A stretch of 62,701 bases of DNA, counting the filler, from Globobulimina sp. (lineage: Eukaryota), in the NCBI GenBank assembly GCA_003354225.1. It is 25 parts of 25 records of this genome, joined end to end, with 100 filler letters (N's around TTAATTAATTAA, not from the genome) between each part and the next. Parts side by side here need not be neighbours in the genome. Positions count along the whole stretch, not along the records: positions 7,543 to 9,956 come from PIVH01006824.1; 24 more parts are not named here. The stretch is one strand, 5' to 3'. The notes beneath the pieces are model-generated. The model searched no databases. It was not told the DNA's origin and saw nothing but the letters and a program-made list of their open reading frames with translations. Both the position numbers and the translations under genes were made by a program. Below, one piece after another: positions 4,868-48,022 of this stretch (position 1 is its first letter; each line of letters opens with the position of its first letter).

Positions 4868-5029
4868 ATTGTATATTTGTTGAACAATTGTTTTGAGTTT
4901 AAATAAATTTGCTTCTTTGACACCATTCNNNNNNNNNNNNNNNNNNNNNNNNNNNNNNNNNNNNNNNNNNNNTTAATTAATTAANNNNNNNNNNNNNNNN
5001 NNNNNNNNNNNNNNNNNNNNNNNNNNNNT

Positions 5030-7151: not shown

Positions 7152-7543
7152 TGTTGAATTAACTGCAATCACAGAGTAAGCGTAGTAAAAATGGACTTAA
7201 CATTCCCAAGGCCGTTTTTATAATATTTTATGCATAATATTACACTTGAAGTGACTTGGTGATATTTCGCATCGATGTGTTCCAACCATTCTAAAGTATT
7301 TAATTTATGCATATATTCAAACTGCACAATATAAAATAGGAAAAGCACCTTGATTGACCTTTGTAGCATTTGGTGAGATTGACGCATTTGAGAAAGTTAT
7401 TTTCACTCCTTTTATTGTTACGGTTGTTTTTCCTGGTTTTATNNNNNNNNNNNNNNNNNNNNNNNNNNNNNNNNNNNNNNNNNNNNTTAATTAATTAANN
7501 NNNNNNNNNNNNNNNNNNNNNNNNNNNNNNNNNNNNNNNNNNT

Positions 7544-8131
7544 CGATTAAGAGCTGAAAATGGTATTAAACCGTTATGTGTCTGTCGATGCATTAAAAAT
7601 ATACAAACAATCACCACCGACACCACGCGCGACATTGCACATTCTGTGTCTGCGGCAGTTTCAACTACAATCAAAGCAAGAACTTCATCACAATTAACCC
7701 GTTCGGAAGCATTTAAAGCAAAATCTACATCTCGACCAACAATACAATTATCAGCCATTCAGGAAACAGTAAGTGATGGAAAAGCAACTTTAGACAGAAA
7801 AGAAGGCGATGGTCAGTATCCAACTTTAGACCGAAGGCGATCGTCAGTATCGATATCATCGCTTGACAGTGATCAGGAACATACTATTAATGATAATGAG
7901 AGTTACAGTCCTAAAAAACATGCAATTGATAAGACCGAAGGGGTGCTTGAAAGAAAAGAATTGTTGAAGTTAACCACAGTGAAATTAGCTAGAAAGTGTA
8001 GAGAAATGAATATATCATCAAAGGGAAGTAAAGCAGATTTGGTTAATCGTATAATAGCTTCGAACAAAGCATTAACAAAAGTTACACCAAAATTAAAATT
8101 AATTGCAAGTGATAGTACTTCCACAATATAG
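7544..8131 (+). CDS. Protein C-terminus with SAP-like DNA-binding motif, 5' partial
   Basis: Frame open from the contig edge; LLKLTTVKLARKCREMNISSKGSKADLVNRI fits the SAP pattern. Confidence 0.65.
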   Translation, partial: RLRAENGIKPLCVCRCIKNIQTITTDTTRDIAHSVSAAVSTTIKARTSSQLTRSEAFKAKSTSRPTIQLSAIQETVSDGKATLDRKEGDGQYPTLDRRRSSVSISSLDSDQEHTINDNESYSPKKHAIDKTEGVLERKELLKLTTVKLARKCREMNISSKGSKADLVNRIIASNKALTKVTPKLKLIASDSTSTI

Positions 8132-8345
8132 TATGTAAAGAGCATGCTAGCTTATTTAAATTTTTATGATTGTTTTTCTAAACTTTTTTGAGTGTGCTGT
8201 ACATGTGTTTTTTTTTTATGTTTTGCAAATCCATTGTGTAATAGTTTATTATTAGAATTTAGTGAAATTCGTGATCGTTTTTTGTGTCTTCATATAAAAT
8301 GAATGCGCGGACATAAACCTGAAAAAAAACCGTGTACTACATATT

Positions 8346-9026
8346 ATGAACATGTCACCGTTTTTGCTTTTGATAGCAAACCTAGTATTTATAGTTACAG
8401 GGTATAACGACTTATGTATTCGAGGGAGTGGCCTGACTGACTTAGATCAACGGTATATATTTGACCTAAATTCTGAGCAGCCATACGGTGAATTTAATTT
8501 AGTCTGGAAAGGAGTGCGAAAAACAGAATATTGGTTTTGGTTGGCATTTTATAATAAATCTTATGAATGGACTATTGATAATAAAAACGACCAAGTTTTA
8601 AGATATTGTACACTGACAACAAAGCAGCAGGATAATATTAAGAAAGGTGAGATTTCATACATTTATCCATATTCATGCGAATCTTGGCGTTCCCATAATC
8701 CGCAAACAAAAAAAAGCCAAGCTTTGGACCATATGGAGGTGTTTGACTGTGATATCTATTCAATCGATGAGTTGTTAGAATATATTGTATTTTCTACCGG
8801 CAAATCTGCCACAATTAATTCTGATGGAAAAATTGTAATTGATACCGATTCAAATACGAATGCTAAAAAATCTAATCATGAGACAAATGGATGGGATTTA
8901 AGATATATTGATATTATGTATATTGTGGTATTGACAATTATGGCATACTTTGTGTTTAAAAAGCAACAGAGAGAAAAAACACGAAGTTTATATCGTCCCG
9001 TCAATACTGATAATGATGAAACATGA
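8346..9026 (+). CDS. Hypothetical type I membrane protein
   Basis: Signal peptide, Cys/Trp-containing ectodomain, C-terminal TM segment and short basic tail. Confidence 0.7.
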   Translation: MNMSPFLLLIANLVFIVTGYNDLCIRGSGLTDLDQRYIFDLNSEQPYGEFNLVWKGVRKTEYWFWLAFYNKSYEWTIDNKNDQVLRYCTLTTKQQDNIKKGEISYIYPYSCESWRSHNPQTKKSQALDHMEVFDCDIYSIDELLEYIVFSTGKSATINSDGKIVIDTDSNTNAKKSNHETNGWDLRYIDIMYIVVLTIMAYFVFKKQQREKTRSLYRPVNTDNDET

Positions 9027-9156
9027 CAATGAAAACAGTTTATTGTTTGTAGTTTGCTCTCTATTATACGCCAGATGGTACTTTTTTTCATAACAAACTA
9101 TGTATCAAAACTTATCATCAATCAACAAAATCGGATAAGTAAAATAATAAAAAAAA

Positions 9157-9570
9157 GAGCGGATATAGCTAATGTTAATCAGAATCGCAGGCAAACGAAG
9201 CCTTGAAACATCCTAATGCTTACTGGCCAGTTTTGAATGCATATTGAATGCACGAACGAGGCTCATAACGTAGGCCAGCGGGGATGAACATAGATTCTAT
9301 TTGCGATTAATGCACTAAACTCATATCCTGACCAAATCCTATAACACTATATCTGCGCTACACGGTTGAGAGTAGAATGCATTACTTTGGATTTTGTTTG
9401 AAGTTAATACAGAAAGATCTTCAAATTTGTTTTTAGTGCAACTACACTAAACTAGGATTATGACGGTAATCTAGGAGCTAGGATGGTTATGAAGAACACG
9501 TATGCTCAACACAACCACTACAATCAACTGTATGGTGAATGTTATAACTGGATTGGCTTATTCCTTCCTT
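9157..9570 (+). ncRNA. Candidate structured non-coding RNA, family unassigned
   Basis: No ORF; GC is higher than in the flanks; many complementary segments whose imperfect pairs are G-U on the + strand (see findings). Confidence 0.5.
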
Positions 9571-9674
9571 GCATTACAAACATATATTTATAGTACAAAA
9601 ATATGCTATGAATTTATTTTATGGGACATTAATTGTTAAAAATAATTAAGTAAATTACGATCTGAAAAATTTAA

Positions 9675-9956
9675 TCAAACATTGGTTCGACAAACAGGAC
9701 ACCGTGGCTGCTGTGGTCTATTTAACCAATTATCAACACAATGTTGATGAAACTCATGCATACATTGCAATCTTCGCACTCTGTCACCAACACTAAAACT
9801 AACCAAACATATTTGACACTCTTTCTTATTTTCATCCTTATCCCTTACCCCAATATCATTAATATCCAATGTTTGTAGTGGCGAATTTCTCCATGAACCA
9901 TCATTATTATTACCACGCATATCATTGATATTCATAGTAACATCAGCTCCATTGTT
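9675..9956 (-). CDS. RING-H2 finger E3 ligase C-terminus, 5' partial
   Basis: CQIC-x14-CMHEFHQHCVDNWL-x6-CPVCR. Confidence 0.9.
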   Translation of the reverse strand, partial: NNGADVTMNINDMRGNNNDGSWRNSPLQTLDINDIGVRDKDENKKECQICLVSFSVGDRVRRLQCMHEFHQHCVDNWLNRPQQPRCPVCRTNV

Positions 9957-10058
9957 NNNNNNNNNNNNNNNNNNNNNNNNNNNNNNNNNNNNNNNNNNNN
10001 TTAATTAATTAANNNNNNNNNNNNNNNNNNNNNNNNNNNNNNNNNNNNNNNNNNNNAC

Positions 10059-45130: not shown

Positions 45131-45326
45131 NNNNNNNNNNNNNNNNNNNNNNNNNNNNNNNNNNNNNNNNNNNNTTAATTAATTAANNNNNNNNNNNNNN
45201 NNNNNNNNNNNNNNNNNNNNNNNNNNNNNNAAAAATCAATTTAATCAAAAAATCAAACTTACGAACAAAAGAAATCAATGCACAAAATATGAAAGAAAAT
45301 GATTGCGTTTGTGGGACATTGTCCAA

Positions 45327-46629: not shown

Positions 46630-47237
46630 AAGACTTTTTAAAAATATCAAAATATGGGAGAGACTTTTTAAGAATATATAATAGAGTCTTTTTACAAACG
46701 AATAAAAAAAGTCGTTTCAAAAATATCAAGTCTTTTTATAAATATGGCGCTGTTCGTTAAAAGACCATCCAATCAGGGTAAATTTGGTTTTGGCTGGGAG
46801 TACAAGGCACTGATGATACTTTGCCTTCCAAGTATATATATATATATATATAAAATTCCTGCACTGATCGATAGCAGATTTACCCTGATTGGAGGGTCTT
46901 TTAACGAACAACGCCATATTGAGTCGTTTAAAAATATCAATTTATATATAGACAACCAATACACAACGGGATAAAAATGCCAGTGAGAGTCGTTTTTTTT
47001 TTCAGATCGACAGGTCAAGTAATGCAACTATACGACTACAGCTTCCTTCAATACTACAAAATATGCATCAACATCAACATATCCGACAATACATGACATG
47101 TGTCATATCGGACCATAAACAATATAGTAGTAGTAGTAGTATTTGTAAAACGACTTAATATTTATAAAACGACTTAATATTGGGAGATATCCAAAGGAAC
47201 GATTTTATTGAAACTTGAAAGTCGTTTTCGAAATATT
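46630..47237. repeat. Degenerate 19-bp repeat (AGTCGTTTTATAAATATTA-like) in both orientations
   Basis: Forward copies or cores at 46631, 46661, 46685, 46710, 46729, 46922, 46988 and 47220; reverse tandem copies at 47146-47162 and 47165-47181. Confidence 0.7.
46741..46920. mobile_element. MITE with ~40-bp terminal inverted repeats and a TA target duplication
   Basis: 46741-46783 matches the reverse complement of 46878-46920 at 41/43; internal (TA)n; TA at 46743-44 and 46917-18. Confidence 0.85.
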
Positions 47238-48022
47238 AGCGCCACATTGTCTGTGCAGTGCAGTGCACTCGCCAAAATTTCTGAGGAGAAGGAATTCACC
47301 CAGTTTATATGTAACACCAGCACTGATGATACATCATTTTGGATATTAAACCGTCCTGACTTTGTTGACCATGGCGCAACCACAGTTTAACAGGGATCAT
47401 GTGCATGATTTAGGAAACAAATATGACAGACAATCCTTTCCGTATTCACTTTACCAACACTCATTTGCATTGATCACAATTCCAAAAGACTTCTCATCAC
47501 ACAAAGACAATTTATTTAACATATTTAAACAGTTATTTGATTCAAACGAACATTTGAAATGTTCTGTTAATGATAGATTTATGGGACATATATCCACACC
47601 AAAAGTTAAGGTATTGTATCACAGGACGTAAAATTTGATATNNNNNNNNNNNNNNNNNNNNNNNNNNNNNNNNNNNNNNNNNNNNTTAATTAATTAANNN
47701 NNNNNNNNNNNNNNNNNNNNNNNNNNNNNNNNNNNNNNNNNAAGCAGTATTAACAAGTTTATAATCCAGTGCATTTTGAAACAAGTACAAAAAACAGCAA
47801 CTGGAAAACGGATTTTGTAGATTTAGAAAAAGGATATTAGTGCTATTTTCGACAACTTCGTTGGACAAATCCGACTGAATCGCGATAAATTAAATGTGTT
47901 GGGTATCAAAAATATCAGCTGTTTGTGATTAGAATTTTGATTCTCAACACTGTACATTTAATTTATCGGATTTATCCAATGTTTTATGCGATGATATATC
48001 CATTTAATTAAGGTAACACTTT

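Follow-up and report, generated by a model that had tools for sequence, protein, structure and literature searches.

A dispersed element with snRNA-type, Pol III-type signals that may encode a new RNA of about 400 nt in a Globobulimina assembly

Between two convergent genes in an assembly of Globobulimina sp. (GCA_003354225.1) lies a block of about 400 nt without an appreciable open reading frame. The question is what this block is and, if it is the gene of an RNA, which strand encodes that RNA. A reading made from the sequence only had proposed a structured, unassigned RNA on the plus strand at 9157-9570, with two domains and two pseudoknots, which might be a ribozyme or the RNA of a retroelement. 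We analysed the block within a stretch of 62,701 nt, hereafter the window, which is made of 25 pieces of ~2.41 kb with 24 linkers of the form N44-TTAATTAATTAA-N44 between them. The block falls in the piece at 7543-9956.

The setting of the block had been described correctly. It lies between a plus-strand ORF (8346-9026) and a convergent minus-strand RING-finger ORF (9675-9935), and the longest open frame in it is at most 35 codons in any of the six frames. It is also enriched in GC, with 0.387 in 9158-9558 against 0.26 (9027-9157) and 0.198 (9559-9674) in the flanking spacers. The gene content of the window is eukaryotic, including RING finger, SAP, G-alpha, kinesin and SF3B3-type propeller domains (Pfam). 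The best named match of the SF3B3 fragment, which is 62% identical, is from a chlorarachniophyte, and plants and animals are about as near; the G-alpha query gave 4 matches in all, the best of which is 69% identical. Judged from these protein sequences, the source lineage is a poorly sampled protist whose named relatives are distant. A dictyostelid origin is unsupported, since homology searches gave no close named relative for the proteins.

Neither a tRNA nor a tmRNA was found in the window by the tRNA scan, and no U6, U3, SRP or MRP gene was found in it at the Rfam gathering thresholds. There is no telomere-like array anywhere in the window and no tandem repeat in 9100-9660. The block has no second copy within the window; outside the locus, BLAST gave nothing better than a 28-nt match at 86%.

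Promoter-like and terminator-like signals on the minus strand

The signals from which an RNA gene can be predicted, together with the unit that contains them, are as follows.

9149-9630, minus strand: the whole repeated unit (~482 bp) of candidate promoter, predicted RNA and candidate terminator, as delimited by its copies
9627-9619, minus strand: USE/DUSE-like box GTCCCATAA, at -69 to -61 if +1 is 9558
9592-9585, minus strand: TATA box TATAAATA, at -34 to -27, recognised in the sequence and by regular expression
9558-9158, minus strand: predicted RNA of ~401 nt, with A 9558 as its first base and a 3' end ...CCGCU(C) before the T-run
9156-9149, minus strand: T8 run at the limit of the conserved sequence, a candidate terminator of the Pol III type

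The distance from the USE-like 9-mer to the start of the TATA box is 26 nt. We infer the RNA ends at 9558 and 9158 from the promoter geometry and the T-run. A USE-like 9-mer followed by a TATA box 15-40 nt downstream occurs once in the 62.7 kb (regular-expression search). Runs of at least eight T are found at 0.25 per kb per strand in the window, so that such a run should fall within a few bases of any one boundary in ~0.25% of cases. The 8-mer of the box taken alone is not enriched, with 9 found in the window against 10.3 expected. In run X3, one of the public runs described below, the variant 9588 T>A turns the TATA box into TATATATA. The sole other exact USE-like 9-mer is at 47579-47587 (minus strand), inside an ORF of 89 codons; neither this site nor that at 45309-45317 (minus strand, one mismatch) is followed by a recognisable RNA gene. 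On the plus strand of the block there is no promoter or terminator signal, and the conserved A-run would lie at the 5' side of an RNA from that strand. A bacterial promoter and terminator scan gave nothing above shuffles, with a bacterial model that is unsuited to a eukaryote.

The box GTCCCATAA fits the DUSE consensus [AT]CCCA[AT]AA and the USE cores GNCCCAYW and RTCCCWTA, which are consensuses from other lineages and may not be those of the host. In dictyostelids, DUSE is described ~60-63 nt upstream of ncRNA genes of both Pol II and Pol III, and many Class I RNA genes have downstream T-runs (PMC3188802, PMC7919456). A type 3 promoter, composed of USE and TATA, is described behind the genes of U1-U6, U3, SRP, MRP and the plant and ciliate telomerase RNAs; the USE cores given for distant protists are GNCCCAYW, RTCCCWTA and ACCCATAA, and T-rich terminators are found on these genes (PMC8287931). 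The spacing between USE and TATA in A. thaliana is given as 23-24 bp for Pol III and 32-34 bp for Pol II, by a measuring convention that may differ from ours (PMC8287931).

Because the USE-like box, the TATA box and the T-run are all on the minus strand, we favour a reading from that strand, and the plus-strand RNA proposed earlier is improbable. The block would belong to a family of dispersed snRNA-type genes of the Pol III type, whose product is a new ncRNA of ~400 nt encoded on the minus strand. Given these sequence features and the copies described below, we put the probability of this reading at about 0.5. In the mechanism that we infer, each copy would be a compact type 3 transcription unit on the minus strand, in which the upstream element GTCCCATAA (9627-9619) may recruit a SNAPc-like factor and the TATA box (9592-9585) would fix the start near A 9558. 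RNA polymerase III would then transcribe ~401 nt, terminate within the T8 run (9156-9149) and so yield a two-domain RNA outside all Rfam families. By analogy, the predicted RNA would share its gene class with U6, 7SK, SRP, MRP and the plant and ciliate telomerase RNAs, and this class suggests that it may act as an abundant lineage-specific RNP scaffold.

Copies of the unit and their limits

Contigs of four public runs (X1-X4), whose library kinds are unrecorded, were aligned to 8300-9950. The organism is present in X1, from which long clean pieces of the flanking genes were recovered (4 other letters in 426 and 0 in 219). Summed depth in X1 is 60-90 over the element against 2-7 over the flanking genes. 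The limits of similarity are sharp. On the left side, matching stops at 9149 in three X1 contigs and at 9151 in one; on the right side, it stops at 9601 (two contigs), 9619 (one) and 9630 (one), the last of which is also the limit in one X3 contig. Beyond both limits the X1 contigs run on into dissimilar flanks, four on the left and four on the right. An alternative letter at a single site is carried by up to 5 contigs, and the divergence of copies ranges from 0/98 to 14/96 letters. These are multiple copies of one unit with different flanks.

One piece of the element, at ~9420-9477 (~58 nt), stands apart in X1 with a summed depth of 27,843, the rest remaining at the depth given above. Cover in X1-X3 has gaps, e.g. 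at 9084-9139 and 9644-9699, which have no bearing on expression. The match in X4 is one 36-nt piece inside the upstream ORF and is irrelevant to the element. From the cover patterns, X2 and X3 are suspected to be RNA libraries and X1 to be DNA, and this was not used as evidence.

In metagenome contigs, 26 loci share an 18-mer with the element; 25 of them are chance matches of 18-25 nt, and one (L010) extends. This second locus is 97.85% identical to 9334-9149 over 186 nt, with 4 substitutions in 178 nt, and its contig begins inside the element. It has T9 where the window has T8, and similarity collapses directly past this run. The end of an unrelated convergent gene of 697 codons with TFIIIC Tau95 domains lies 5 nt past the T9. 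Candidate loci in viral contigs (two) and in prokaryote genomes (two) gave no match at E <= 0.001 in any of the four cases.

Between the copy limits lies exactly this group of signals: one limit is just upstream of the USE-like box, and the other is where the T-run ends. The earlier block limits of 9157-9570 were nearly right, and the copy evidence changes them to 9158-9558. The core idea of the sequence-only reading, an unassigned ncRNA gene of ~400 nt, gains support in this way, whereas its strand and its details fail. The promoter spacer of 72 nt is conserved whole between copies; recent duplication fits this conservation as well as selection does.

The multicopy state, the copies diverged by 6-15% and the piece at depth 27,843 are repeat-like. 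The element may simply be a non-autonomous dispersed repeat, such as a transposon relic, a solo LTR-like element or a satellite monomer, which has no RNA function and in which the signal words are chance features of AT-rich DNA. Copies between different flanks with up to ~15% divergence would be expected of such a repeat, as would the great depth of the sub-piece in X1, and two assemblies break inside or at the element. One head-to-tail joint, described below, suggests tandem copies. Conservation is uniform and extends to the spacer that separates the start from the USE-like box, perfect hairpins of 7-9 bp are present on both strands, and a loose AT-rich direct repeat of 9-10 nt (TAAAATAAT and TAAAAATAAT) lies near both ends. 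However, the element has no terminal inverted repeats, the sole inverted pair near its ends being an A/T 8-mer, and it has neither a TG...CA end nor a sense-side poly(A) on either strand. The candidate target duplication is ~7 nt off the similarity limit at 9630, and the joined positions 9558/9158 do not match the repeat limits 9149/9630. Moreover, both loci end exactly at the T-run and the start lies just upstream of the USE-like box. We regard a repeat without RNA function as less likely than the minus-strand gene, but as a serious rival to it.

SINEs are marked by internal A and B boxes, a 3' poly(A) or simple repeat and a target-site duplication. The element is like SINEs and other Pol III-derived repeats in its size of several hundred bp, its lack of coding capacity, its dispersed and diverged copies and its Pol III-like termination. 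It differs from them in that the external promoter region is inside the conserved unit, and in having neither a poly(A) or simple-repeat tail nor a clear target-site duplication. Resemblance to an A-box or B-box in the block is weak (by eye).

Comparison with known RNA families

At the gathering thresholds of Rfam, the whole window gave no match. At E <= 10, searches with 901 and 501 nt around the block returned miRNA-precursor noise only, with MIR5304 at 14.5 bits against a gathering threshold of 75 and mir-239 at 15.4 against 49. Hallmark words were also scanned on both strands; they covered RNase P CR-I and CR-V, the MRP CR-I core, SRP helix 8, box C, the hammerhead core, the Sm site, U6 and U2 words and the permutations of CCCTAA. 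None of these was present on either strand except a partial CR-V core.

Nuclear RNase P RNA has a P4 pseudoknot that is formed by CR-I (GNAANNUCNGNG) and CR-V (ACNNNAUNCNGANUA). Neither CR-I nor the full CR-V was found on either strand; the partial CR-V core, AUNCNGANUA, lies at 9185 on the minus strand, 27 nt from the 3' end. In RNase MRP, the P8 pentaloop GARAR is described as a defining feature, kept from protists to metazoans, and the catalytic pseudoknot as made up of CR-I, CR-IV and CR-V (PMC13184271). In the block, GARAR is found twice on the plus strand, in neither case closed by a base pair, and never on the minus strand. No MRP CR-I of the AAGUCCCC type was found on either strand. 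The element is like RNase P and MRP RNAs in its length, in the Pol III-type gene that these RNAs have in many lineages and in the CR-V-like word near its 3' end, but it is multicopy and differs in having no CR-I, no catalytic pseudoknot that we could build, no GARAR P8 pentaloop and no covariance-model match at E <= 10. The echo of RNase P/MRP CR-V that had been noticed in the block is unsupported by these features.

Eukaryotic SRP (7SL) RNA has a helix 8 with a GNAR tetraloop and with AGCAG as one side of a symmetric loop. Here, AGCAG was absent from both strands, as was any GNRA or GNAR tetraloop closed by at least 3 pairs, and no SRP covariance model matched. U3 and the box C/D snoRNAs have a box C/C' UGAUGA paired with a box D CUGA; in the block, UGAUGA is on neither strand and CUGA occurs once on each. 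Domain V of group II introns, a hairpin of 34 nt, is marked by an AGC triad, a bulge of 2 nt and a GNRA tetraloop. An echo of this domain had been seen at 9475-9507, where only the outer 4 bp GAGC/GCUC pair and no GNRA tetraloop is closed; no intron family of Rfam matched at E <= 10, and the likeness was dropped.

In Pol III telomerase RNAs, the template is described as complementary to ~1.5 telomere repeats and located within ~200 nt of the USE (PMC8287931). No permutation of CCCTAA is on either strand of the block, and the host telomere repeat may differ from it. A near-tandem word of 13 nt, UCCUAGCUCCUAG, at ~9484-9472 on the minus strand is like a template for a 7-nt repeat and may be there by chance.

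It is conceivable, as a special case of the minus-strand gene reading, that the predicted RNA is one of the known essential RNAs (RNase MRP, RNase P, SRP or telomerase RNA) that is too diverged for the Rfam models. A type 3 promoter with a T-run is the gene type of the MRP, SRP and Pol III telomerase RNAs (PMC8287931), and a length of ~400 nt would suit. The poor sampling of the lineage, as seen in the SF3B3 fragment (62%) and the G-alpha query (4 matches), also favours this idea, together with the partial CR-V core at 9185 and the 13-nt word that can be read as the template of a 7-nt repeat. On the other hand, no covariance model matched at E <= 10 even on 501 nt, and CR-I, the full CR-V, the AAGUCCCC-type word, a closed GARAR, GNRA or GNAR loop, AGCAG, UGAUGA and the CCCTAA permutations were all missing. 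In the minimum-energy fold, the 5' and 3' ends of the predicted RNA do not form a P1 pairing. Such RNAs are normally single-copy, whereas the element is multicopy. A diverged member of these families is an improbable explanation.

The Class I RNAs of dictyostelids measure ~42-65 nt. They are described as 50-60 bp in size, with a terminal stem that is short and a motif of 11 nt, and their genes are likewise a lineage-restricted multicopy family with the box [AT]CCCA[AT]AA ~60 nt upstream and often a T-run downstream (PMC7919456, PMC3188802). Unlike these short RNAs with their 11-nt motif, the RNA predicted here would be ~401 nt long and have two domains. Type 3 Pol III genes (U6, 7SK, MRP, SRP and telomerase RNA) likewise have a USE-like element near -65, a TATA box near -30 and a terminal T-run (PMC8287931), and they have no need of internal boxes, as would be the case here. 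The element differs from them in that the predicted RNA matches none of these RNAs and in its many diverged copies. A literature search for a protist Pol III RNA of this kind, multicopy or circular, found no paper, although such RNAs may exist; supplements outside its scope may list relevant USE motifs or ncRNA sets.

Head-to-tail joint, folding and choice of strand

One X2 contig reads 9508-9558, then one letter, then 9158-9355, which is a head-to-tail joint. The shorter side of the contig has 51 letters, and no letters are shared at the joint. The contig represents a diverged copy, with 10 other letters and 3 gaps in 198, at a depth of 5.8 and in an alignment made at 80% likeness. The joined positions, 9558 and 9158, coincide with the 5' and 3' ends of the predicted RNA. 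Such a joint could come from a circular RNA, from a tandem dimer or, as an artefact, from the alignment of a repeat at 80% likeness. In a bolder reading, the locus would encode an abundant lineage-specific Pol III RNA of ~400 nt outside the described families. The exact ends of this RNA would be joined head-to-tail, in a circular RNA or an RNA-templated tandem copy, and the piece at ~9420-9477 would have given rise to a repeat with thousands of copies in this genome. We consider this a long shot.

Hammerhead retrozymes and viroid-like RNAs carry a self-cleaving ribozyme in each unit and occur in head-to-tail or circular forms. A retrozyme- or viroid-like element of circular or rolling-circle RNA, with 9158-9558 as the unit that is processed and then ligated head-to-tail and with DNA copies in the genome, would agree with the contig that joins 9558 to 9158 across a single letter and with the multicopy state. 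However, no CUGANGA word was found and no ribozyme family (hammerhead, twister, HDV-like or others) matched at E <= 10; the ribozyme suggested earlier is equally not borne out, as no self-cleaving motif or family was found on either strand at this threshold. The circular fold of the minus strand is weaker than the linear one (-97.1 vs -101.6 kcal/mol), and the z values are far from viroid-like ones. Furthermore, the window contains a single unit, which carries promoter-like and terminator-like signals of its own, and the joint was seen in a diverged copy, in one contig from a library of unrecorded kind. A circular element of this type is very improbable.

Returning to the minus-strand gene, its predicted RNA would be divided into two domains.

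9333-9558, minus strand: 5' domain, a predicted multi-hairpin junction with stems at 9397-9425, 9432-9451, 9452-9475, ~9475-9507 and 9514-9536
9158-9332, minus strand: 3' domain, covered by the second locus, with a fold within chance

The folding energy of 9157-9570 has a z of -1.79 on the plus strand (2 of 100 shuffles as good) and -3.03 on the minus strand. For 9158-9558, z is -1.81 on the plus strand (200 shuffles) and -3.41 on the minus strand. The half at 9333-9558 reaches -3.61 on the minus strand, where 1 of 200 shuffles was as good, and -3.01 on the plus strand, while the half at 9158-9332 has -1.68 (12 of 200 shuffles as good) and -1.03, respectively. In the comparison with shuffles, the plus strand as a whole did no better than they did and the minus strand did better. 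The structural signal of the block overall, as modelled, is modest.

The long-range helices described for the plus strand are present at all 8 of their 8 positions, 7 without mismatch and 1 with one, and include five G-U pairs in total when read on that strand. The two helices that were taken for pseudoknots are there as complementary words, and the pseudoknots themselves are unsupported. The G-U pairs had been offered as an argument for the plus strand. This argument is circular, because the helices were chosen by reading the plus strand, and the minimum-energy folds contain 10 G-U pairs on the plus strand and 11 on the minus strand.

Substitutions between copies were compared with the folds in a set of 18, composed of 17 sites from the run table and the second locus, one of which has two alternatives. 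Eight fall in pairs of the minus-strand minimum-energy fold, 5 of them leaving the pair intact and 3 disrupting it; of the 6 in pairs of the plus-strand fold, 2 leave the pair intact and 4 disrupt it. Within the helices of the sequence-only reading, 9166 T>C produces C-A on the plus strand but G-U on the minus strand, and 9370 G>A produces A-C and U-G, respectively. At 9304, the run variant C>U leaves the helix 9183-9190/9301-9308 intact on the plus strand only, and C>G at the second locus breaks it on both strands. No compensatory double change is among the 18 substitutions. The substitutions lean weakly to the minus strand and are no proof of structure.

An RNA from the plus strand with two domains and two pseudoknots, whether ribozyme or retroelement RNA, is the least credible of the readings: its helices are all present with G-U as the imperfect pairs, the half at 9333-9558 folds well on that strand too (z -3.01) and the 9304 C>U variant suits it, but its whole fold is within shuffles (z -1.8), the strand has no promoter or terminator signal and would place the A-run 5', 9166 T>C and 9370 G>A leave wobble pairs on the minus strand only, the G-U counts of the two strands are about equal, and no ribozyme family or motif was found.

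What the finding means depends on which reading holds. If the element is merely a repeat that carries promoter-like words, it is ordinary. If the circular or mobile reading were true, a gene of the snRNA type would be, in a deep protist lineage, the master from which an RNA-mediated mobile or circular element is copied. If the minus-strand RNA is real, it would represent a new family of mid-sized Pol III RNAs in a lineage with almost no characterised ncRNAs. The upstream element of the CCCA(T/C)AA type, which is known from plants, ciliates and dictyostelids, would then mark ncRNA genes here too, and would provide a cheap handle for the other snRNA-type genes of the lineage, including its missing MRP, P and telomerase RNAs.

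Make-up of the window and other USE-like boxes

The window (1-62701) is composed of 25 pieces, each of about 2.41 kb and arranged by slowly falling length, and 24 artificial linkers. Gene neighbourhood across different pieces is not real. The linkers and the further occurrences of GTCCCATAA, the USE/DUSE-like 9-mer box that forms part of the proposed type 3 promoter of the element, are as follows.

2415-2514, 4929-5028, 7443-7542, 9957-10056 and so on: linker, composed of N44, TTAATTAATTAA and N44
47579-47587, - strand: second exact GTCCCATAA, within an 89-codon + strand ORF
45309-45317, - strand: GTCCCACAA, with one mismatch to GTCCCATAA

No RNA family was found downstream of the second exact box. 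A distance of 78 nt separates GTCCCACAA from the end of the piece on which it lies, so that any RNA there would run off this piece.

A near-perfect inverted repeat was found at ~46742-46921, with arms of ~42 nt (~46742-46783 and ~46878-46921) and a spacer that contains (TA)10 at 46833-46852. Direct repeats of 19 nt adjoin it, at 46709-46745 and at 47140-47181. The inverted repeat has the appearance of a small element of the foldback or MITE-like type.

Gene beside the second copy of the element

In L010, the metagenome contig with a second copy of the element, a convergent gene of 697 codons (193-2286, - strand) has its stop 5 nt from the end of this copy. The gene encodes TFIIIC Tau95 domains (PF17682, E 4e-20; PF09734, E 1.5e-12), and its position beside the element is read as a coincidence of neighbourhood.

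Head-to-tail joint and read depth within the element

One contig of sequencing run X2 joins 9558 head-to-tail to 9158, which are both ends of the 401-nt unit, with one extra letter between them. This joint could stem from a circular RNA or from a tandem dimer, or it could be artefactual. The 8-mer CAATCAAC is present twice, at 9119-9126 and 9521-9528, and its spacing of 402 nt equals the length of the head-to-tail unit. Since the surroundings of the two sites are only ~46% alike over 57 nt, as judged by eye, this recurrence is probably due to chance.

In run X1, the summed contig depth reached 27,843 at ~9420-9477 of the element; it was 60-90 elsewhere in the element and 2-7 in the flanking genes. 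No loose contig end fell in ~9420-9477 among those listed for X1, which implies that something very abundant has just that piece in common with the element.
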